Shown here piece after piece: positions 7,187 to 37,802 of a stretch of 64,000 bases of DNA (positions within the stretch are counted from its first letter, which is position 1; every line of letters starts with the position of its first letter). The stretch covers positions 14,814-78,813 of the forward strand of contig CALVOU010000001.1 of assembly GCA_944350365.1 (NCBI GenBank). Direction: 5' to 3'. The translations under genes were made by a program, and so were the position numbers. The notes under the pieces are model-generated. The model was not told the origin of the DNA, did no database searches, and was given only the letters and a program-made list of their open reading frames with translations. This DNA comes from an uncultured Bacilli bacterium. GTDB taxonomy: Bacteria; Bacillota_I; Bacilli_A; RF39; UBA660.

Positions 7187-8523
7187 TAATATTTAATTAT
7201 TATATCATAACTTTCGTTTTTTTGTTTATTTATTTTACTTTTCTTAATACCAGGCACCCATACAATTTTACCAGTCGCATCGGCGACAACAGGCCATAAT
7301 TCACGTTCTTCCATCGGTACTTTAGAATTAATAAAAATATCTTTTAATTTCTTAGTACCAGATAATCCTTTTACTGCCATTTTATCCCCATATCTTCTCG
7401 TTCTAACATAAAGAGGTAACACAACATCACAACTGTTTAAACGACAAACATCATTCCCATTTTCAGGAATATCATGACGCATAACTTCTAAATGCTTGCC
7501 ATTAGGAAGAACCGCATAATCAATTAATTCCATTTCATAATGATTAATTTCTTCTCCATCCAAAACTACTTTTACTTGGTTGTACACTTTTACTATTTTA
7601 ATATGATTAGGCAACATAATATAAGCATTTTTCTTATGAGAAAAAATTAGTTGATTAAACAATTGAATATGTCTATCATTGACAGAATTTATATCATCCT
7701 GGTAAACTTCCTCTAAAATACGATAAAGTACTCTCGATTGTAGAAGAAAATCTAAAGTTAAAAAAACAGGTATATCTAAGTATCCATCATGATAAACAGA
7801 AGTAAATACTCTATCCACTTGTCTATCGATAAAATCTGCATACTCCTCTAACATTAAACTAAATTTTAAAAACTTCTCATTCACATTAGGATTTTCCTGT
7901 TTTAAAAATGGTAATACATACTTACGATAACGATTTCTTGTATATTTATCTTTATGATTAGAAGAATCAATAACATAAGGAATCCCCATCTTCACATCAT
8001 AATCTAAAAGTTCCTGTTTAGAAACCGAAATAAGCGGACGAACAAGGAAATAAGAACCTTTATCTACCTCACGTTTAAATCCTGCATAACCACGCAAAGT
8101 AGACCCCCGTACAAGTCTCATTAAAATGGTTTCCATTAAATCATCACCATGATGAGCAGTCATCAAATAGTTTGCCTGATATTTGGTTACTATTTCTTCG
8201 AAATAGCGATAGCGAATATTTCTTGCTTCATTATGAAAATTATCATCGCTATAATGTTCAATCTTCATGGATTCGAACAAAACCCCGTGTTCGTTACACC
8301 AATTCTCTAAAAAAACTTTCTCTTTCTCACTCTCTTTACGCACATTGTGGTTAACATGACAACAAATCAAAGAAAAAGACTTTTTCTTAGCCAAAGTAAC
8401 CAAAATATAAAGTAGTGCCATAGAATCAGGTCCTCCTGATACCCCAACGACTACAGTACTAGAAGGATCTAATAGAGTTGTCAAATAATCATATACTTTT
8501 TCCACACTATTCACCCATTTCAC
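7183..8523 (-). CDS. tilS: tRNA(Ile)-lysidine synthetase
   Basis: 446 aa. The N-terminal PP-loop SGGPDS motif (VGVSGGPDSMAL) is present. Its end overlaps the ftsH start by 4 nt. Unlike Bacillus, no hprT lies between tilS and ftsH. Confidence 0.85.
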   Translation of the reverse strand: MKWVNSVEKVYDYLTTLLDPSSTVVVGVSGGPDSMALLYILVTLAKKKSFSLICCHVNHNVRKESEKEKVFLENWCNEHGVLFESMKIEHYSDDNFHNEARNIRYRYFEEIVTKYQANYLMTAHHGDDLMETILMRLVRGSTLRGYAGFKREVDKGSYFLVRPLISVSKQELLDYDVKMGIPYVIDSSNHKDKYTRNRYRKYVLPFLKQENPNVNEKFLKFSLMLEEYADFIDRQVDRVFTSVYHDGYLDIPVFLTLDFLLQSRVLYRILEEVYQDDINSVNDRHIQLFNQLIFSHKKNAYIMLPNHIKIVKVYNQVKVVLDGEEINHYEMELIDYAVLPNGKHLEVMRHDIPENGNDVCRLNSCDVVLPLYVRTRRYGDKMAVKGLSGTKKLKDIFINSKVPMEERELWPVVADATGKIVWVPGIKKSKINKQKNESYDIIIKYY

Positions 8524-8574
8524 TACAAATAGTATTGTACCATACTTATCAATAAAAACAAAAGAAAAAGAAGA

Positions 8575-8877
8575 TTATTCTTCATCTTCTTCTGGCAATC
8601 TTAGAATAATCTCCCCATCTTTAGAATACATATACTTCTCCCGTGCATAACGAGCAATATAATCTGGATCTTCTAATTTTTCAACATCCACTTTTAATTC
8701 TGCTTCCTTTTCTCGTAAAGTGAGCATCTTTTCTTCTAAGATACCCTTTTCTTGATACTTTTCGAATATTTGAACCCAATAGTTACCAACAGCAGTAAAT
8801 ATAGCGACGATCGCTACCGCACAGATAGGCACGAAAAGACAAACACGTGCACGGGACTTTGTTTTTTTCTTTCTCAT
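8575..8877 (-). CDS. divIC: Septum formation initiator, DivIC/FtsB family
   Basis: 100 aa. A single N-terminal TM segment is followed by a coiled-coil (LREKEAELKVDVEKLE). Its position after yabP-yabQ matches the Bacillus yabQ-divIC arrangement. Confidence 0.55.
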   Translation of the reverse strand: MRKKKTKSRARVCLFVPICAVAIVAIFTAVGNYWVQIFEKYQEKGILEEKMLTLREKEAELKVDVEKLEDPDYIARYAREKYMYSKDGEIILRLPEEDEE

Positions 8878-8981
8878 ACCTATGCAAACCTCCCTATTCT
8901 TCTTATTATTATAAGTAGAAATAAAAGAAATGACAACCGTTTAAAAATAGAAAGTTTTGTCACTTGACAAAGAAATGTAAA

Positions 8982-9257
8982 CTAATGATAACGAACTTTT
9001 TGACTAAATAAATTACCAACTAAATAACCAATTAAAGTCATCATTAAAAAATAAATGTGAATACGAGCAGAATTAATCGCAAACATCATCACAAAATATA
9101 ATAAACAAAAAAATAATACAAAAAGAAAAGTAAAAATATAACGAAAAATTCCCTTAGAAAGAAACAACCACTTATAACACCAATTAACCAAATAAGATAA
9201 TAAAAAGCCAAATACAAAAGAAGCAACAAGGCTTTGAATCTGTAGCTCTAATATCAT
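8982..9257 (-). CDS. yabQ: Spore cortex biosynthesis membrane protein, YabQ-like
   Basis: 91 aa small polytopic membrane protein. Its start overlaps the yabP stop, the conserved yabP-yabQ arrangement. Confidence 0.4.
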   Translation of the reverse strand: MILELQIQSLVASFVFGFLLSYLVNWCYKWLFLSKGIFRYIFTFLFVLFFCLLYFVMMFAINSARIHIYFLMMTLIGYLVGNLFSQKVRYH

Positions 9258-9547
9258 TATTTGAACAACCTACTAATAATATTCGATTCCTTTTCTTTTT
9301 TTGTCGCATCATCAACATAGGCAAAAGACTTTAAAAATCCTTTAATCGATACATTTCCTTGTAAAGTATCTAATTTTAACAACTCTAAATCGTCCCCTTT
9401 TAATACTAAAAATCCCATTACTGTCTCCATTAAAAATTCTTCGTTATCGAAACTCTCAATCTTTTTTACCCCAGTTACTAAAATATTCTTTCTTTCTACA
9501 ATATTAACACTATGATTATAATTTGTAATATTAGTATCCTTGTCCAT
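9257..9547 (-). CDS. yabP: Sporulation protein YabP
   Basis: 96 aa. The YabP family signature is visible (NIVERKNILVTGVKKIESFDNEEF...LKGDDLEL). Confidence 0.65.
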   Translation of the reverse strand: MDKDTNITNYNHSVNIVERKNILVTGVKKIESFDNEEFLMETVMGFLVLKGDDLELLKLDTLQGNVSIKGFLKSFAYVDDATKKEKESNIISRLFK

Positions 9548-9664
9548 ATATATTCCTCCTAGTTAAAAATATGAAATACAAAAAAAAATATACCAAAAGA
9601 AAAGAAGACACTTAGTACCTCTATTTTAAAACTGATAATTATAACAAAATTTTACCAGAACAAA

Positions 9665-9811
9665 ATGAAAAATAAATTTTTCATGTCCCAGTCGTTGCCT
9701 CCTGGGTTTTCTGCTTCATCGATAAAGTTACCTTTATTCTCCACAGACTTAACATCCGATAGTCGCTACCGTAGTTTTTTGTTCTTACTTTTATCTGTAT
9801 TTTTTTCTCGA
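9665..9811 (-). ncRNA. Candidate omega-RNA (reRNA) guide scaffold of TnpB
   Basis: This segment is immediately 3' of tnpB on the same strand. It is GC-richer than the flanks and has stem-loops (for example CCCAGgaggcaacgaCTGGG). This is the position where TnpB omega-RNAs are encoded. The call rests on inference only. Confidence 0.3.
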
Positions 9812-10948
9812 CTATATTAGCTCTTTTACATATTTCTTTATTCCCTCAAATAATATATTTTGACTAGCATTGATATCTCTATCATGGTAACTTCCACATT
9901 CTGGACATATCCAGTTTCTAACTGATAATTCTTTTACTTTCTCATTTTTATATCCACATTTACTACATTCCTGACTACTTGGATAATAGGTATCTATCTG
10001 TATATATCGTTTTCCATAATACTTAGCTTTATATTCTAATACACGACATATCTCAGATAAACAAACATCAGTTAGAGATTTAGAGAACTTCTTTTCTTCA
10101 ATCATCTCTTTTACCTTTAATGTTTCACTTACCACAATATCATTTTCTAATACTAGTTTTTTTGTTATTTGATGAATAAAGTGTTTTCTCGCATTCTTTA
10201 ACTTCTGAAATAGAACGGCTAACTTTCTCTTCGTTTTATAATAATTATTACTTCCTTTTTCTCGCCTAGCTAATTCCCTTTGTTTCCTTTTGATTCTTTT
10301 TTCATATTTCTCAATAATTTTCTCATTCTTTATCTTTTCTCCATCACTTGTAATTACAACATCTTTTATCCCTAAATCTATTCCTACTATTCTTTTTGGA
10401 ATAATCTTTGCCACAAGATGATTCACTTCTACTAATACACTAACATAGTATTTACCACTTGAATACTCACTAATAGTTGCGTTGATAATTCTTCCAGGTA
10501 AAGATTCTAAATTTCTATATCCTCTAATCTTTACTTCTTTTAATTTAGGAAGAGTAATTACTTTTCTTTTTAAATCTACTTTAATATTCTCATATTTTCT
10601 TTCTTTATAAGTACTCGTAATATAATTCGTTCGATAACTTCTTTTTGAACTATATTTTCCTTTAAACTTAGGATAATTGTTTTGATGTTTGATAAATCGT
10701 TTAAATGCGTCCTCTAAATCAAATAAACTACATCTCAAACTACAAGAATCTACTTCTTTCAAGAATGGATATTCTGAATATAAATTAGGCAAATCTTTAA
10801 TCATATCAAAACAAGTTAAATGTTCTTTCTTTCTTTTTTCAAGATAATGATTATAAACAAATCTTGTGCAACCAAACGTTTTTTGAATCATAATGATTTG
10901 ACTATCATTTGGATAAAGACGAAACTGATAACTTTTATACATATTCAT
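9812..10948 (-). CDS. tnpB: TnpB (OrfB) RNA-guided endonuclease / IS605-family accessory protein
   Basis: 378 aa. It has the N-terminal YQFRLYP..Q motif, RuvC-I (VGIDLGIKD), a zinc finger (CSKCG...CPECG) and RuvC-III (HDRDINASQNI). Confidence 0.85.
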   Translation of the reverse strand: MNMYKSYQFRLYPNDSQIIMIQKTFGCTRFVYNHYLEKRKKEHLTCFDMIKDLPNLYSEYPFLKEVDSCSLRCSLFDLEDAFKRFIKHQNNYPKFKGKYSSKRSYRTNYITSTYKERKYENIKVDLKRKVITLPKLKEVKIRGYRNLESLPGRIINATISEYSSGKYYVSVLVEVNHLVAKIIPKRIVGIDLGIKDVVITSDGEKIKNEKIIEKYEKRIKRKQRELARREKGSNNYYKTKRKLAVLFQKLKNARKHFIHQITKKLVLENDIVVSETLKVKEMIEEKKFSKSLTDVCLSEICRVLEYKAKYYGKRYIQIDTYYPSSQECSKCGYKNEKVKELSVRNWICPECGSYHDRDINASQNILFEGIKKYVKELI

Positions 10949-11075
10949 GATGTCATTCCCCCTTTGGTGTTAATAGTTAACAAGACTATACCAAACAAAT
11001 GTATGCAAATCAAGTAAATTACAAAATTTTCTATTTTTTATTTTATTCTTCTATACCAAGCAAATTCCTAGTATA

Positions 11076-11100
11076 TAAAAAAAGCCCATAGGGCTTTAAA
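11076..11100 (-). terminator. Rho-independent terminator of spoVG
   Basis: On the minus strand a hairpin AAAGCCCTATGGGCTTT is followed by a T-run. It lies directly after the spoVG stop. Confidence 0.5.
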
Positions 11101-11107
11101 ACACATT

Positions 11108-11386
11108 TTATTCTTCGCTTGCAACAGGATCTTCTGCTTCTTCGTAAGCTTTAAGAATTGCCTCTTCAAACATAGAACGTACCTCTGGATTGATTGGATG
11201 AGCGATGTCACGGTACCCTCCATTTGGAGTTTTTTTACTAGGCATAGCGATAAATAATCCTTTTTCACCTTCGATGATACGAATATCATGTACAGCGAAA
11301 CTATCGTCTAGCAATACTGATGCGATACCTTTCATCCTAGAGCCTTCTTTTTCAATCTTACGAACATTTACAGATGTAATCTTCAT
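11108..11386 (-). CDS. spoVG: Septation/sporulation regulator SpoVG
   Basis: 92 aa. It is near-canonical SpoVG ([12 protein letters not shown]...[30 protein letters not shown]...). Confidence 0.9.
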
Positions 11387-11489
11387 ATGTTATCCTCCTT
11401 CTAAAGCATCTAACTTTATATTACCATCATATAATAAAAATAACAAAAATGCAAGAAAAAGAAAGAGGAAAAGACTATTTTTTCGACAT

Positions 11490-12224
11490 TTAAGAATAAA
11501 AATAATTTCCAGAATATGGTAATTCTTGGTAAAATTGATTTAACATTTCCATATCGATAAATTCTGGATCAAATAACTGAATATTACAAAAGGAATATAG
11601 AAGCTGTATCGAAGAATCGTTCAAGGCGAATTTTCGTTTAAAAAAGTGATATAATTGTTCAATTTTTCTATCATTATAATTAGAATTAGGATCTCTAATA
11701 CGCTTAGATAATAAAATAGGTATCCACCAATCATAATCTTCCTTACTAACATGAAGCAGATGTTTCCCATAAGTCAAATATTCTAATGAACTAAGATATA
11801 AATAACGATTAGATTCCGATAACGAAATCGCATTTTCTAACCGACACCCTACCGCAAATATTCTAGCGATAATAAATGACTTTTGGAAAACATTTTGATC
11901 AGTTGTCTCTAAACATAATATTGCCTGTTCTATACTATAAAAATTATGGTAAAAAGCGTGATGATATAGACGATTAGAACCTTCACGATGTGTCTTTTCT
12001 AATATAGAATTAGCTTCTTGAATAATCGCATGAGCATTATCCAACTTTAAAGCAAGCTCCTCGTCATTTGATAAAACCGCTACTTCCCTCATCTTCTGAT
12101 ACAAGATAAGTAATTCATCATACAACGATATCGAATGGACAGTAGAGTTCTGTAGCCAATCGATAAAACCTTGATATACTTCAGTAACTGTCATTATCCT
12201 CACCTCAAGATAACCGTACCACAT
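11490..12224 (-). CDS. Hypothetical protein. The likely true start is at MTVTEVY, around 12194.
   Basis: 244 aa ORF between veg and spoVG. No recognisable motifs. Confidence 0.35.
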   Translation of the reverse strand: MWYGYLEVRIMTVTEVYQGFIDWLQNSTVHSISLYDELLILYQKMREVAVLSNDEELALKLDNAHAIIQEANSILEKTHREGSNRLYHHAFYHNFYSIEQAILCLETTDQNVFQKSFIIARIFAVGCRLENAISLSESNRYLYLSSLEYLTYGKHLLHVSKEDYDWWIPILLSKRIRDPNSNYNDRKIEQLYHFFKRKFALNDSSIQLLYSFCNIQLFDPEFIDMEMLNQFYQELPYSGNYFYS

Positions 12225-12252
12225 CCATCAAGGAGAATGCCACAAAAAACGT

Positions 12253-12468
12253 TCAACTTAATACGACCAATTTTTTAATTAACATATCACTATAACTAAA
12301 TGATTTTATCCTCTGATTATCCTGTAAACGAATAATAAAAACCGCATCATAAGTATTAATAATTGTTCCTTCAAATTCTTCTATTTGATTACGACTACCA
12401 TTAAAACGAAATTTTAAATTTTTCCCTTTATAAGAATTCACTTTATCTCTTACTTTTTCTATCGTCAT
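12253..12468 (-). CDS. veg: Veg (biofilm/sporulation-associated small protein)
   Basis: It aligns with B. subtilis Veg (LKFRFNGSRNQIEEFEGTIINTYDAVFIIRL...FSYSDML). The likely start is MTIEKV at 12468. That ATG overlaps the yabG TGA stop as ATGA. Confidence 0.75.
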   Translation of the reverse strand: MTIEKVRDKVNSYKGKNLKFRFNGSRNQIEEFEGTIINTYDAVFIIRLQDNQRIKSFSYSDMLIKKLVVLS

Positions 12469-13304
12469 CTCGGATACCCCACAAACATACATCCTTTTGT
12501 GGCAACCCCACCGATACCTTCTGAACCATATTTAGTTTTTTCTAAAAGATGAATTAAATCCACCGTTTTATTTCGATCAAACAAAGCAATACCAGATGCG
12601 ATAATAGCAGGATCTAAAGCATGAATATTAATTCTTTTTGGACTAGACGCAAAAGTAGCCCCTGATTTAATTAATTCTTCATAATTACTCTGACAAGCAC
12701 CCGCTATAATAATCAATTTATCTTGATCTTTTTCGTACTTTCTAGCCATCTTAACTGCTTCGATAAAACTCGCCGTATTTTTATAACTAGTTAACTCTTT
12801 AATCGAACCCTTTCTCTTATAATAAGCATCATGCCCAGTTATTACCAAAATATCTGGATTTAGTTTCGTTAAATAACTGATAATTTCTGATTGAATATCC
12901 GCTTCCTGTAAACACACACCATACGCCATAATATTTAATTTCTTATATAAATTCATACAACGTCTTAAATAATCTTCATCACCATCTATATGTAGTACTT
13001 TACCAGGTAGATAGAAATATTCACTTCTATCTAGTTTAATTCCTTTATCTACCCGCTCAAAAATTAAATCATCATCTTCTATTTTTTGATTCTCCACCTT
13101 GTTTAAATCCTCAAGCTCACTATCTGCGTATAATCTCAAGTTAATTCCCTTCAAGTAAGCAGTATTTCCCACAATATCGATAATCTTAAAAAACATATCA
13201 TTCTGATAAGACTCTCTAGTCACAATATCTCCTATATGAAAAAGCATATTCTTCACCCATAAAATTATATGTAAAATAGGAAATAAATTATGCGTATTAT
13301 TCAA
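12465..13304 (-). CDS. yabG: Sporulation-specific protease YabG (peptidase U57)
   Basis: 279 aa. It shows the YabG family pattern (ITGHDAY...IIAGACQSNYEEL...) and is adjacent to veg as in Bacillus. Confidence 0.75.
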   Translation of the reverse strand: MNNTHNLFPILHIILWVKNMLFHIGDIVTRESYQNDMFFKIIDIVGNTAYLKGINLRLYADSELEDLNKVENQKIEDDDLIFERVDKGIKLDRSEYFYLPGKVLHIDGDEDYLRRCMNLYKKLNIMAYGVCLQEADIQSEIISYLTKLNPDILVITGHDAYYKRKGSIKELTSYKNTASFIEAVKMARKYEKDQDKLIIIAGACQSNYEELIKSGATFASSPKRINIHALDPAIIASGIALFDRNKTVDLIHLLEKTKYGSEGIGGVATKGCMFVGYPR

Positions 13305-20213: not shown

Positions 20214-20480
20214 TACTCAACACCACCTCATAAAAAAACGACTTTCTCGCCTATAAGGACGAAAAAATCGCGGTACCACCTTACTTTATGAATAAATATC
20301 CATACTCTCAACTTCTTAACGCGAATAACGGATAAACCTACCTATCGATCTATCAGTTCCAGAACCATCTATCATACTTCCTTTATATCCCATTTCACCA
20401 ACCGAGACTCTCTTCTCATAAAATCCATATGACTCTTTCTTTCAAAACTTTTATATCTAGAGATTATATCATAAAGATTT

Positions 20481-33384: not shown

Positions 33385-33465
33385 AAAAGTGCACATAAAT
33401 ATGAAATGTTAAGGCTGCTATCTTCCGATCCTGACCTGGTTCCACCCATATTTATTGCACATCAA
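33385..33465 (-). ncRNA. ffs: Signal recognition particle RNA (small 4.5S-type SRP RNA)
   Basis: The minus strand reads ...GGGUGGAACCAGGUCAGGAUCGGAAGAUAGCAGCC... This matches the universally conserved SRP RNA domain IV (ACCAGGUCAGG..GGAAG..AGCAGCC). Closing helix: GUGCAAUAAAUAUG pairs with CAUAUUUAUGUGCAC. A U-tract follows. Confidence 0.7.
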
Positions 33466-33479
33466 TATTCTAATATATT

Positions 33480-33532
33480 TTATCCACAATTTCAACAAAA
33501 ATGCAAAATTTTCTATTATTTTTTTATCCACA
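33480..33532 (+). promoter_or_regulatory. Two perfect DnaA boxes (TTATCCACA at 33480-33488 and 33524-33532) between ffs and the parS array
   Basis: Exact 9-mer consensus, same orientation. Further boxes lie at 34130-34138 (TTATCCACC, one mismatch) and 35275-35283 (perfect). Confidence 0.5.
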
Positions 33533-33543
33533 ATTAAATTTAA

Positions 33544-33559
33544 TGTTTCACGTGAAACA
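33544..33559. promoter_or_regulatory. parS site 1 (TGTTTCACGTGAAACA)
   Basis: Exact 16-bp parS consensus palindrome. Confidence 0.8.
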
Positions 33560-33662
33560 TCGAACAGAAATTTTATGCTAAAACACTACTTTTAAATGTT
33601 AAAAATAATAATATATTTGTCACTCTACATAAAATTACAACTAAAAGTTAATTAGCCGACAA

Positions 33663-33678
33663 TGTTTCACGTGAAACA
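33663..33678. promoter_or_regulatory. parS site 2, paired with NBS at 33692-33705
   Basis: Exact parS. It is followed by TGTGTATAA and then the perfect NBS ATTTCCCGGGAAAT. Confidence 0.8.
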
Positions 33679-33928
33679 TTGTGTATAAATTATTTCCCGG
33701 GAAATAATTTTTTATTCATTTCGACAAAATGGCAAGAATTAATATATATCAAAAAAAAATATCTTAGATCTTAGTATCGATTATATTCTTTAAATAACAA
33801 TACAATGGCTTTTCCCAAAAAAAAATAATAATTACCCGCTAAATAAACAATAACTATGTCTTAATGTACTCCCTTTCACAGAGAAACTTCAGAAAATTCA
33901 ATAGAGAAAGAGAGAACTAAAAAATCAA

Positions 33929-33944
33929 TGTTTCACGTGAAACA
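33929..33944. promoter_or_regulatory. parS site 3, paired with a variant NBS ATTTCCCAGGAAAT at 33958-33971
   Basis: Exact parS. The adjacent NBS has one mismatch. Confidence 0.75.
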
Positions 33945-34192
33945 TTGTGCATATTTTATTTCCCAGGAAATAATTTTTCGACTAATTTAACAAACAACAA
34001 TATAAAATCCTCATGCGTTAAATTAATTTAAAACTAAATACATGACTTTGGCACACATACAACCAAACATTTTTATAAAAAAGCATCGACAACTACTTAA
34101 TCAATCAATATCAAAGGAATTATCCACCGTATAAAATTATTAACGGGTACAATAAATAAACTTACACATATAATATAAAGTTAACAATTCAA

Positions 34193-34208
34193 TGTTCCAC
34201 GTGAAACA
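34193..34208. promoter_or_regulatory. parS site 4 (TGTTCCACGTGAAACA, the B. subtilis-type variant), with no adjacent NBS
   Basis: A 15/16 match to the palindrome. It is identical to the classic B. subtilis parS. Confidence 0.75.
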
Positions 34209-34362
34209 TTGAGGAAAAAACATTTCAAAAAAAGCAGCAAATATAGGCTAATAATATGATATTTCTTAAAAAAAATCATAATCCTATAAAACATACATCT
34301 ATAAATCGTTTAAATGACACTCTCGTTAAGAATTTTACAAATAAATAAAACTATTTGATGAA

Positions 34363-34378
34363 TGTTTCACGTGAAACA
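34363..34378. promoter_or_regulatory. parS site 5, paired with NBS at 34392-34405
   Basis: Exact parS plus a perfect NBS. This is the duplicate of the site 2 unit. Confidence 0.8.
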
Positions 34379-34609
34379 TTGTGTATAAATTATTTCCCGG
34401 GAAATAATTTTTTATTCGTTTCAACAAAATGGCAAGAATTACATCTTAGAACATAGTAACGATTATATTCCTTAAATAACATTATAATAGTTTTTCGCAA
34501 AAAAAATAATAATTACCTGCCAAATAAACAATAACTACATCTCAATGTACTCCCTTTCACAAAGAAATTTTAGAAAATTCAATAGAAAAAGAGAAAACTA
34601 ATAGATCAA

Positions 34610-34625
34610 TGTTTCACGTGAAACA
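34610..34625. promoter_or_regulatory. parS site 6, paired with NBS at 34638-34651
   Basis: Exact parS plus a perfect NBS. Confidence 0.8.
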
Positions 34626-34893
34626 TTGTGTATATTTATTTCCCGGGAAATAATTTTAAAGCATTTTATTTTTACTAATAATAACTTCCTTATCTGAGCA
34701 TAACTAAAAAACATATTACCGTTTTAAGAAAAAATATTTATTTACAACAAACACAATATAAATTTTTATTTGAAATTTCCTACAATAAAAATATTTTCTT
34801 AATATGATCTTATCTTCTATGCAAAAGCTAAATCCTACTGATAAAGCTTTCAAGATTATAATTTAATCTTCTATTAGAACTTTCACTATCTAA

Positions 34894-34909
34894 TGTTTCA
34901 CGTGAAACA
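34894..34909. promoter_or_regulatory. parS site 7, paired with NBS at 34923-34936
   Basis: Exact parS plus a perfect NBS. Confidence 0.8.
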
Positions 34910-35153
34910 TTGTGCATAAATTATTTCCCGGGAAATAATTTCCTAACTACTATAAGTACAAAAAATTTTAATAATAATTCATCACCATATCCAATATAGA
35001 CCAACTCAAATAAATTATAACGGATAATTTCAATTTAAAATAAATAAGAAAATTCTATAAATAAAATAATAGAACGAGCATTAATAATTAAAAATCCAAA
35101 ACTTCTAACAATAATAATCATAATCTATATTCTATATAAAGAATAATTAACAA

Positions 35154-35169
35154 TGTTTCACGTGAAACA
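35154..35169. promoter_or_regulatory. parS site 8, with no adjacent NBS
   Basis: Exact parS. Confidence 0.8.
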
Positions 35170-35333
35170 TTGTGTATAAAATATATATTTAAGAAATAAA
35201 TCTTTATTCATAATTTTAGATTCCTATAAAATCGATAAGTAATTACTATACTAAATACACAATGCTAATTTATTTTATCCACAAAGCGGTGGAATCAATA
35301 TGGCACAAAAAAACATAGACCTTAAAAGATCTA

Positions 35334-35349
35334 TGTTTCACGTGAAACA
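35334..35349. promoter_or_regulatory. parS site 9, lying 9 bp downstream of the gyrA stop
   Basis: Exact parS. It lies between the gyrA stop codon and the putative gyrA terminator hairpin at 35305-35332. Confidence 0.8.
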
Positions 35350-35357
35350 TGCGAATT

Positions 35358-37802
35358 CTATTCCACTGTTTCCTCTTCTGCTTCATCCGTTTCTGAAGTA
35401 CTATCAATTACAGATACAGTAGCAACACGTTGATCATCCTTCAAATGGATTAATCTCACCCCTTGCGTAGCTCGTTTAAGTGTAGAAATCTGATCCATTG
35501 GCATTCTCATGATTATACCATTATCAGTAATAATAATTAAATCATCAGCATCTGTAACAGCTTTCAATGAAACCATACTTCCATTCTTTTCTGTAATATG
35601 TAGCGCCATAACTCCCTTACTACCACGGTGAGTTAATCGATACTCATCAACTTCAGTTTTCTTACCATAACCATTAACAGTAACAACTAAAATTTTCTGA
35701 GAGTTATCCACAACTTCGCCACCAACGGTTATCGCACCATCTAATTCCATTCCTTTAACACCAGAAGCAGTTCTTCCCATTACACGAATTTCTTTTTCAC
35801 TAAATCTAACCATACGTCCGTTCGATGCGCCTATCAATACTTCATTCTCACCTGTCGTTTTACGAACAGAAATTAATTCGTCATCTTCTTTTAACGTTAT
35901 AGCCAACTTACCACTTGATCTAATATTATCAAATTCAGATAAATTCGTCCGTTTTACTAATCCATTCTTAGTAATAAATAACAAATAATTGAACGAATGT
36001 TCGCTAGCTTCTAGAGTAACAACAGAACTTATATATTCTTCTTTCTCAAGAGGAAGTAAATTAATGATAGGTAGTCCCTTACTCTGACGACTGTATTCAG
36101 GAATTTCATACCCTTTCATCCGATATACCTTACCCTTATTCGTAAAGAATAAAATATAATCATGAGTACTCATATTAAGCATTTTCTCCACAAAATCCTC
36201 TTCGTTAGTCGTCATACCTTTTATACCTACACCACCACGATTTTGTGTACGATAAGCATCAACAGGCATACGTTTAATGTACCCTTTATTCGTTAGTGTG
36301 ATCAAAGTCTGTTCTACTGGAATTAAAGACTCATCTTCGATATATTCAATAGCTGTCATATCAATTGTTGTTCTACGTTCATCACCATATTTATCTTTAA
36401 TTTCTAATAATTCATTTTTAATAACTTCCAAAATCTTTTCATCACTACTCAAAATTAACCTTAGCTCCCCTATTAACTTCAATAAATCGGCTAATTCATT
36501 TTCTATTTTCTCGCGCTCTAATCCAGTTAATCTTCTTAACTTCATCTCTAGAATCGCATTAGCTTGAACCTCAGATAAGCCAAATTTCGACATTAAACCA
36601 GATCGAGCCTCGTCATCAGAATTAGCTGCTTTGATTAATTGAATAATTTCATCAATATTATCAAGAGCTATCTTTAATCCCTCTAAAATATGAACACGTT
36701 TTTCAGCATTCTCCAAATCAAAACGAGTTCTACGAATAATTACTTCACGTTGGAAATCAATATATTTTGCGATAATATCCTTTAATCCTAATGTTTTAGG
36801 AACACCTTGATCAAGCATAAGGAAAATAATACCGTAACTAACCTGAAGACTTGTATGCTTATATAATTTATTCAAAACAACCTGAGCATTAGCATCTTTC
36901 TTCAACGTAATCGTAATCTTAATTCCATCTTTTAAATCAGAATGGTAGTCTGAAATTCCTTCAATTGTCTTGTTATGAACAAGCTCAGCAACCTTGTTTT
37001 TTAAATCCAAAGTATTAATTCCATAAGGTACTTCTTCAATAATAATATATTGTTTACCATTCTTTTCCTCAATATGAGCCTTACTACGTATAGTAATAGA
37101 CCCCCTACCTGTTTCATAAGCTTTTCTAATACCACTATTTCCTAAAATAGTAGCACCAGTAGGAAAATCAGGTCCTTTTACATACTGCATTAACTCATTT
37201 AACTCAATATCCGGGTTATCAATATAAGCCACACAACCATCAATAACTTCACCCAAATTATGAGGTGGGATGTTTGTAGCCATACCAACGGCAATACCTG
37301 TAGTACCATTTACTAAAATATTCGGGAATCTAGAAGGTAAAACAACTGGCTCCTTTGTAGATTCATCGAAGTTTGGAATAAAATCAACAGTATTTTTATT
37401 AATATTTCTAAGTAATTCCAAAGAAATCTTCGAAAGTCTAGATTCCGTATATCGCATGGCAGCTGCGCCATAACCTTCAATATTTCCAAAGTTACCATGA
37501 CCATCTATCAACATGTAGCGATAAGAAAAATCTTGAGCCATTCTTACCATTGCTTCATAAATAGAAGAATCTCCATGAGGGTGATAATTACCCATAACCT
37601 CACCGACAGTTTTCGCACTTTTTTTATGAGGCTTATCAGGAGTATAACCAGACTCATACATAGAATATAAAATTCGACGATGAACAGGTTTTAATCCATC
37701 ACGAAGATCAGGAATAGCACGAGCAGTTATAACACTCATCGAATAATCCAAAAAGGAATCTTGTACTTCTTTTACAATATTATTGTGTTCTAATCTATCC
37801 AT
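35358..37802 (-). CDS. gyrA: DNA gyrase subunit A
   Basis: 814 aa. It has an active-site Tyr region, a QRDR-like segment ([17 protein letters not shown]), C-terminal beta-pinwheel repeats and an acidic tail. Confidence 0.95.

Follow-up and report, generated by a model that had tools for sequence, protein, structure and literature searches.

Between spoVG and yabP, the 64-kb stretch of DNA analysed here (the window) carries an intact, recently mobile, non-autonomous TnpB insertion sequence with a conserved structured RNA module. The arrangement is very probably that of a non-autonomous IS200/IS605 insertion sequence with tnpB only, in an IS1341-like layout and with a guide RNA at its right end. 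The class is well understood, and the element adds no new concept to it.

Ends of the element and its empty site

All features described here lie on the minus strand, on which the gene order is yabG, veg, an unassigned 244-aa ORF, spoVG (11108..11386), tnpB (9812..10948), yabP (9257..9547), yabQ, divIC, tilS and ftsH. A preliminary description of this DNA, whose observation we confirm and whose interpretation we consider essentially right, had placed a solo TnpB behind the spoVG terminator and ahead of yabP, in agreement with the intrinsic terminator hairpin that a terminator scan locates at 11097..11081; the range it gave, 9548–11107, is the entire 1,560-bp intergenic gap, and the element proper is shorter.

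The ends were fixed by comparing occupied and empty alleles. A look-up of the exact YabP protein returned contigs that are 99.3–99.9% identical to the window flanks, and four of them (L091, L092, L096 and L098) have the site empty and read ...AAAGCCCTATGGGCTTTTTTTA|TGGTAAAATTTTGTTATAATTATC..., or in shorter form ...GGGCTTTTTTTA|TGGTAAAATTTTG...; the spoVG terminator hairpin is present in all four and is host DNA. In the occupied allele, TATACTAGGAATTTGC...CATTTTGTTC is inserted at the bar, with the left junction reading ...GGGCTTTTTTTA|TGG.... Because the flanks are so nearly identical, the insertion can be called precise and free of a target duplication, in a register that is ambiguous by one T, and the comparison defines the element as 11075..9658, 1,418 bp in length. 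Precise insertion 3' of a short motif, with neither target-site duplication nor terminal inverted repeats, is a feature of the IS200/IS605 group that this element shows. Four further contigs (L094, L095, L097 and L099) share the window's right-end junction, and their sequence begins within the element, which is what an assembler is expected to produce on meeting a repeat.

Copies elsewhere define the same two ends. DNA homology with three close relatives (L001–L003) runs from ~11082 to ~9655–9657 and then ends, the three copies lying in surroundings that bear no relation to spoVG or yabP. The search for further copies and the comparison with strains lacking the insertion, both proposed in the preliminary description, were therefore each successful. 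The window was also searched by self-BLAST, for repeats and with a covariance model run without filters, and yielded neither another copy of the element nor a solo RNA module.

The left end comprises 127 nt (10949..11075), delimited by the point at which homology with L001 and L002 stops, and begins with the conserved TATACTAGGAATTTGC, a 30-nt block of it being common to relatives of only ~52% identity. It contains a ribosome-binding site and, according to a promoter scan, a promoter-like TTGATT-17-TATAGT preceded by TG (11013..10985). Directly 5' of it lies TTTTTTTA (11076..11083), the terminator T-tract plus A, which is the predicted TAM. The right end has a clear subterminal hairpin that covaries among relatives. 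Some relatives also have a clear hairpin ~20 nt into the left end (e.g. L016, z = -2.2); in the window copy it is weak (z = +0.57), no better than shuffles, and was dropped.

In the empty allele, spoVG and yabP are 142 bp apart. Strains related at 90–95% carry a gene for a 1101-aa S8 peptidase in the same gap, so the synteny at this point was already variable, and the earlier statement that the insertion breaks a conserved spoVG/yab synteny applies only to the window's own lineage, in whose empty allele alone the two genes are direct neighbours. Replacement of the S8 peptidase gene by the TnpB element was considered and rejected, as strains of 99% identity carry the genuine empty allele, which indicates simple insertion. 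In another contig, L093, the right end of a different element lies at exactly the same junction; no further copy of that end was found among the loci and contigs compared.

The TnpB protein

The intact 378-aa ORF matches the Pfam families HTH_OrfB_IS605, OrfB_IS605 and Cas12f1-like_TNB with 62, 76.7 and 76.8 bits, each above cutoff, and the NCBIfam model guided_TnpB with 317 bits against a cutoff of 100; with the narrower NCBIfam model IS200_TnpB it scores 406.9 bits, slightly below the cutoff of 425. In a comparison with solved structures, it aligned end to end with ISDra2 TnpB (E = 2e-70). ISDra2 residues D191, E278 and D361 align to D191, E275 and D358 of the window protein, and the zinc-finger cysteines C331/C334/C351/C354 to C328/C331/C348/C351, with both CxxC pairs kept. 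The last of the acidic residues, D361, we take to be catalytic in ISDra2. The D191A and E278A variants of ISDra2 TnpB are catalytically dead (PMC8612924). The complete RuvC and zinc-finger architecture claimed for this protein is thus upheld by the ORF call, by both profile collections and by the ISDra2 alignment, including the RuvC residues that it had been proposed to check. By analogy, the window TnpB would be an RNA-guided nuclease whose DNA cleavage depends on a TAM.

A look-up of the exact protein in the contig index returned nothing. Species-representative genomes, when scanned, yielded 80 loci, of which L001–L003 encode proteins 93–94% identical to it and the others proteins of 50–71% identity. 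Plasmid-borne annotated relatives are at most 44% identical, and the annotated proteins among the matches listed are all IS200/IS605 TnpB.

Insertion sites and intrinsic terminators

At the 71 family insertions with a placeable left end, T stands at each of positions -8 to -2 in 51–70 loci, and position -1 is taken by A (56 loci) or G (14 loci), giving the left-flank consensus T6-7[A/G]. At the window's empty site, this T-tract belongs to the host. The predicted TAM is TTTTTTA, or a shorter TTTA or TTTTA, as read from one empty site and from a logo that mixes target and element.

A hairpin, counted where the 36 nt upstream fold with an energy of -5 kcal/mol or better, abuts the T-tract at 72% of the 71 sites, some of which are possibly orthologous and therefore not independent. 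By the same criterion, a hairpin is found at 17% of control sites when every TTTTTT[A/G] in these loci is taken (Mann-Whitney p = 9e-19). Judged by this enrichment over controls in the flanking sequence, members of the family stand at the foot of intrinsic terminators and read in the direction of the gene upstream.

This association could be one of survivorship only, with TnpA hitting any T-rich motif and the non-disruptive copies persisting, an explanation to which we give a little less than an even chance. It would suit a genome of 31% GC, where T-runs are common and insertions into genes would be purged, and control sites outside long ORFs are indeed already richer in hairpins (29%) than all sites taken together. 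The enrichment persists, however, against these intergenic sites as well (72% versus 29%, Fisher p = 3e-11), and in most cases the hairpin adjoins the T-tract directly. The other possibility, which we put forward tentatively, is that this TnpB lineage, carried by uncultured gut Bacilli, picks its integration sites by structure as well as sequence, the target being a single-stranded hairpin followed by T6-7[A/G]. If so, the family would follow a safe-harbour strategy convergent with that of group IIC introns, and the TAM of its TnpB would be a long T-tract. The insertion sites of group IIC introns lie directly behind rho-independent terminator stem-loops (PMC7923331); the likeness is in target choice only, these introns being unrelated retroelements with a different mobility mechanism. 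A full-text literature search of incomplete coverage returned no report of terminator-foot targeting by IS200/IS605 elements, and the preference may already be known. Were it mechanistic, it would add a structural component to target choice in single-strand transposition and would explain how such elements multiply harmlessly in small, gene-dense genomes.

Mobility and selection

Copies 92–96% identical to the window element occupy unrelated sites in other genomes. Metagenomes were searched with the left-end 18-mer, which retrieved a contig, L111, with two copies at different sites, each 96% identical to the window protein, along with decayed copies. The four close copies (window, L001 and the two on L111) all have full-length ORFs, and their pairwise dN/dS values of 0.08–0.15 indicate that TnpB is under purifying selection. 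There are also 300-bp units without tnpB, consisting of the left end joined to the right end with its entire RNA module, at two sites (L107 versus L128/L130).

No gene for a Y1 TnpA was detected in the 64-kb window by tblastn with two Y1 transposase queries, as the preliminary description had stated, and the element is therefore classed as non-autonomous and tnpB-only rather than domesticated. That description had left room for a domesticated or a solo TnpB; solo it is, and domestication is contradicted by its polymorphism, its multiple copies elsewhere and its tnpB-less derivatives. The ~1.5 Mb of related loci that were fetched contain two Y1 genes, one intact (L027, Pfam Y1_Tnp, 140 bits) and one frameshifted (L110). 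The IS200-type TnpA of L027 was rejected as the cognate partner because the hairpins and ends that flank it are unrelated to those of the element.

The scarcity of transposase genes would also fit an immobile relic, stranded in a host with no compatible TnpA, where TnpB guards the remaining copy or does nothing and the polymorphism is old or recombinational; the single copy in the window points the same way. We consider this unlikely. Among near-identical strains, the flanks of the occupied and the empty allele are less than 1% apart; contigs from other samples end within the element, as those of a multi-copy repeat would; two 96%-identical copies share the contig L111; and dN/dS is ~0.1. The evidence thus favours an element that has moved recently.

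A covarying RNA module at the right end

From the tnpB stop codon to the right end there are 154 nt, which include a GC-richer patch (36–37%, against ~25% in neighbouring intergenic DNA). An omega-RNA-like scaffold of five helices and 119 nt (9658..9776) reaches the last base of the right end. Its helix 4, read directly from the sequence, is the right-end hairpin ATGAAAAA/TTTA/TTTTTCAT (9665..9684), which is followed by the 7-nt tail TTTGTTC (9664..9658). The preliminary description had recognised this as a perfect hairpin at the element boundary; the hairpin is there, and the boundary lies 7 nt further on, at 9658.

The same description had called the 150 nt behind the stop GC-richer and strongly structured. 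The composition agrees, and the structure is real as well, on the strength of covariation across relatives and not of folding energy: single-sequence folding beats shuffles only modestly (z = -1.99 for the 119-nt core and -1.06 for 353 nt). The regions downstream of tnpB at 74 loci have a common layout that ends in ...TTTGTTC, and helix 4 is kept in relatives through compensatory changes, e.g. GAATTAAG/CTTAATTC in L004. From relatives we built an alignment of 41 sequences, which was used for RNAalifold, for the helix counts and for a covariance model. RNAalifold gave 19 pairs, 16 of them with compensatory changes. When the five-helix structure was laid on the alignment, 92.0% of pair cells were paired, as against 71.7% in shuffles, and both sides change in 26 of the 33 pairs, so that the structured RNA is conserved across copies, as had been anticipated for a genuine element. 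The covariation score was 0.531; shuffles reached 0.186, and slid partners no more than 0.108.

The covariance model has a sole significant match in the window, at 9658..9776 (103 bits, E = 1e-20), and also matches metagenome copies of the element. A closing helix GAACAAAA...TTTTGTTC is perfect in the window, but family-wide this pairing of A-rich leader and tail does no better than shuffles (mean 7.2 nt versus 6.7 nt) and was discarded.

The RNA bound by ISDra2 TnpB ends in ~16 nt of flanking DNA (PMC8612924). By analogy with it, the predicted 16-nt guide is TGGTAAAATTTTGTTA (9657..9642), the host DNA that adjoins the right end and the first sequence past the insertion point in both alleles; it occurs once in the window. 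The identity of the module as omega-RNA, the ends of the RNA and the length of the guide are inferred from the same analogy.

Alternatively, the structured region might be only the single-stranded right end on which TnpA acts, perhaps serving as tnpB terminator too, and contain no guide RNA. The final hairpin, which stops 7 nt short of the end and is followed by a T-rich tail, is laid out as an IS200/IS605 subterminal palindrome, and Rfam has no match at E ≤ 1 within 8500–12500, its only hits at gathering score across the window being a T-box and an SRP RNA, both away from the element. A restriction to this role is nevertheless very unlikely. The four upstream helices covary over ~90 nt, far beyond what a TnpA site needs, and two of the base pairs are G-U in 37–39 of the 41 sequences, as would suit an RNA transcribed from the tnpB strand better than one from the opposite strand. 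In addition, the entire module is retained in the 300-bp derivatives, and the counterpart region of ISDra2 yields a TnpB-bound RNA (PMC8612924). The two roles are compatible, and the right end may serve both as guide RNA and as TnpA site.

The predicted guide overlaps an extended -10-like motif, TGTTATAAT (9646..9638), 90 nt upstream of yabP, and tnpB stands alone, both as might be expected of a domesticated TnpB fixed at the locus in a host role such as RNA-guided regulation of yabP/yabQ, yet this is highly improbable given intact catalytic residues, near-identical strains that are empty at the locus, the same element at unrelated sites elsewhere and a different element at the same junction in L093.

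A model for retention and movement

We propose the following model for the tnpB-only insertion sequence, its steps modelled on parts of the published ISDra2 and Geobacillus TnpB work. The element has inserted, as the alleles show, between the T-tract plus A of the spoVG terminator and TGGTAAAATTTTG. Transcription of tnpB would start at the left-end promoter, possibly helped by read-through from spoVG, and the transcript would be processed to an omega-RNA that is bound by TnpB and carries at its 3' end, as guide, the ~16 nt of flanking DNA. The complex would cut a vacant allele, in which TTTTTTTA directly precedes TGGTAAAATTTTGTTA, whether that allele had arisen by excision or was present on a sister or incoming chromosome, and the element would return through recombination with an occupied copy. 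Such a copy should itself escape cutting, because in it the tail TTTGTTC stands in the position of the TAM.

Movement to a new site would need a Y1 (HuH) TnpA supplied in trans and acting on single-stranded DNA. For the family as a whole, insertion may be directed to, or survive best at, T6-7[A/G] behind a hairpin, in the same direction as the upstream gene. The IS200/IS605 family has a bias for the lagging-strand template. The top strand of the window element is the G-rich strand and carries the sense sequence of every neighbouring gene, an orientation that would fit this bias.

Relation to known elements

One point of comparison is ISDra2 of Deinococcus radiodurans. Its TnpB is homologous over the full length, with the same catalytic and zinc-finger positions; its RNA module likewise extends from the 3' end of tnpB up to the right end, the guide being supplied by flanking DNA, and it too inserts 3' of a short motif without duplication (PMC8612924). 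ISDra2, however, has tnpA and uses TTGAT, whereas the window element lacks tnpA and follows TTTTTTTA, and the conserved scaffold of the latter lies almost entirely 3' of the stop codon.

Another is provided by the tnpB-only insertion sequences and PATEs of Geobacillus stearothermophilus, in which tnpB stands alone between conserved ends, and both these ends and the RNA persist in miniature derivatives (Meers et al., bioRxiv 10.1101/2023.03.14.532601). The tnpB-only elements are presumed to be mobilised in trans, and a model is proposed in which the vacant donor site is cut (bioRxiv 10.1101/2023.03.14.532601). In contrast to the window element, a cognate TnpA is known for the G. stearothermophilus elements, and the parts of that study considered here make no mention of a terminator-foot preference. 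For IS1341-type elements, RNAs that overlap the 3' end of the gene in sense have been described (PMC4615843).

A further relative is the IS605 element on plasmid EAL2_808p of Peptoclostridium acidaminophilum (NZ_CP007453.1), with a TnpB 43% identical to the window protein. The covariance model matches directly after its tnpB (44 bits, E = 1e-8). Unlike the window element, it is autonomous, with a Y1 TnpA gene just upstream, and its left flank has no T-tract.

The practical value of the window element would lie in a compact TnpB of 378 aa that keeps every catalytic residue, paired with a scaffold of ~120 nt that covariation supports. Its natural empty site fixes the ends, a candidate T-rich TAM and a candidate guide, so that the system is ready for a cleavage assay. 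Additionally, occupied and empty alleles co-exist in gut metagenomes and offer a natural test of the homing or retention model.

Alternative alleles of the spoVG-yabP gap

In related loci L081–L090, from strains in which the SpoVG protein is identical and the DNA 90–95% identical, we found that the gap between spoVG and yabP holds a gene for a 1101-aa protein with Peptidase_S8 and CarboxypepD_reg domains (for example, L084 5312–8650), the start of which lies directly 3' of the same TTTTTTTA. When this peptidase allele is compared with the empty allele, the gap lacking the TnpB element, only the 16 nt TGGTAAAATTTTGTTA are found to be replaced. These 16 nt resemble both ends of the 3.3-kb peptidase segment, fused to one another, a resemblance that would fit an old deletion.

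In L093, a locus from a strain with 99.9% identity to the window, an element other than the TnpB element has its right end (positions 1–117, ending ...CCACCCTTTTTAAGGGTGGATTTTTACTC) directly against the very TGGTAAAATTTTG flank that the TnpB element adjoins; a second copy of this right end was absent among the loci compared. On the yabP side of the insertion, an extended -10-like motif recognised from sequence, TGTTATAAT (window 9638–9646, minus strand), lies ~90 nt upstream of yabP and within the predicted guide region, 12 nt off the insertion point, and the DNA formerly upstream of this motif has been replaced by the TnpB insertion.

Derivatives and relatives of the TnpB element

Derivatives of 300 bp that lack tnpB, retaining the left end, the promoter and the full RNA/right end, were observed in three loci (L107 3158–3457, L128 and L130) at two distinct sites. 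In L113, a full RNA/right-end module (82–196) precedes the left end (493) of a second, decayed copy by ~300 nt, and this spacing suggests that insertions are grouped near one another.

IS200-type transposase genes were also seen in two loci. In L027 (OZ007038.1), an intact IS200-type Y1 transposase of 145 aa (2385–2822) is encoded 1.1 kb upstream of a TnpB-family member, and the hairpin ends of this transposase element are unrelated to the TnpB element; in L110, an IS200 tnpA (1460–1905) is frameshifted.

Within the ~52%-identical subfamily (L018–L078), the first 20 nt past the tnpB stop carry, immediately 3' of the stop codon, a AAATTTTGACA-like sequence that by eye matches the 3' arm of helix 4, the right-end hairpin, as a second occurrence of that arm and co-varies with the 5' arm of the helix (GACA/TGTC, GGTA/TACC, TACA/GGTA). 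This sequence could provide an alternative or pseudoknot pairing; the repeat is missing in the window's own subfamily.

Other features of the window

Between veg and spoVG, a 244-aa ORF (11490–12224, minus strand) had no Pfam or NCBIfam match, and all related contigs have a gene of 234–238 aa called at its position. A 1.9-kb stretch adjoining the SRP RNA gene (33450–35360) contains no ORF of at least 70 aa, and in it the perfect palindrome AATGTTTCACGTGAAACATT occurs at least seven times. In most cases a second palindrome, TTATTTCCCGGGAAATAA, follows after ~10 nt; this second palindrome is also present alone at three further places in the window (26346, 46643 and 48173). A T-box leader was detected at 20252–20454 (minus strand, 98 bits).
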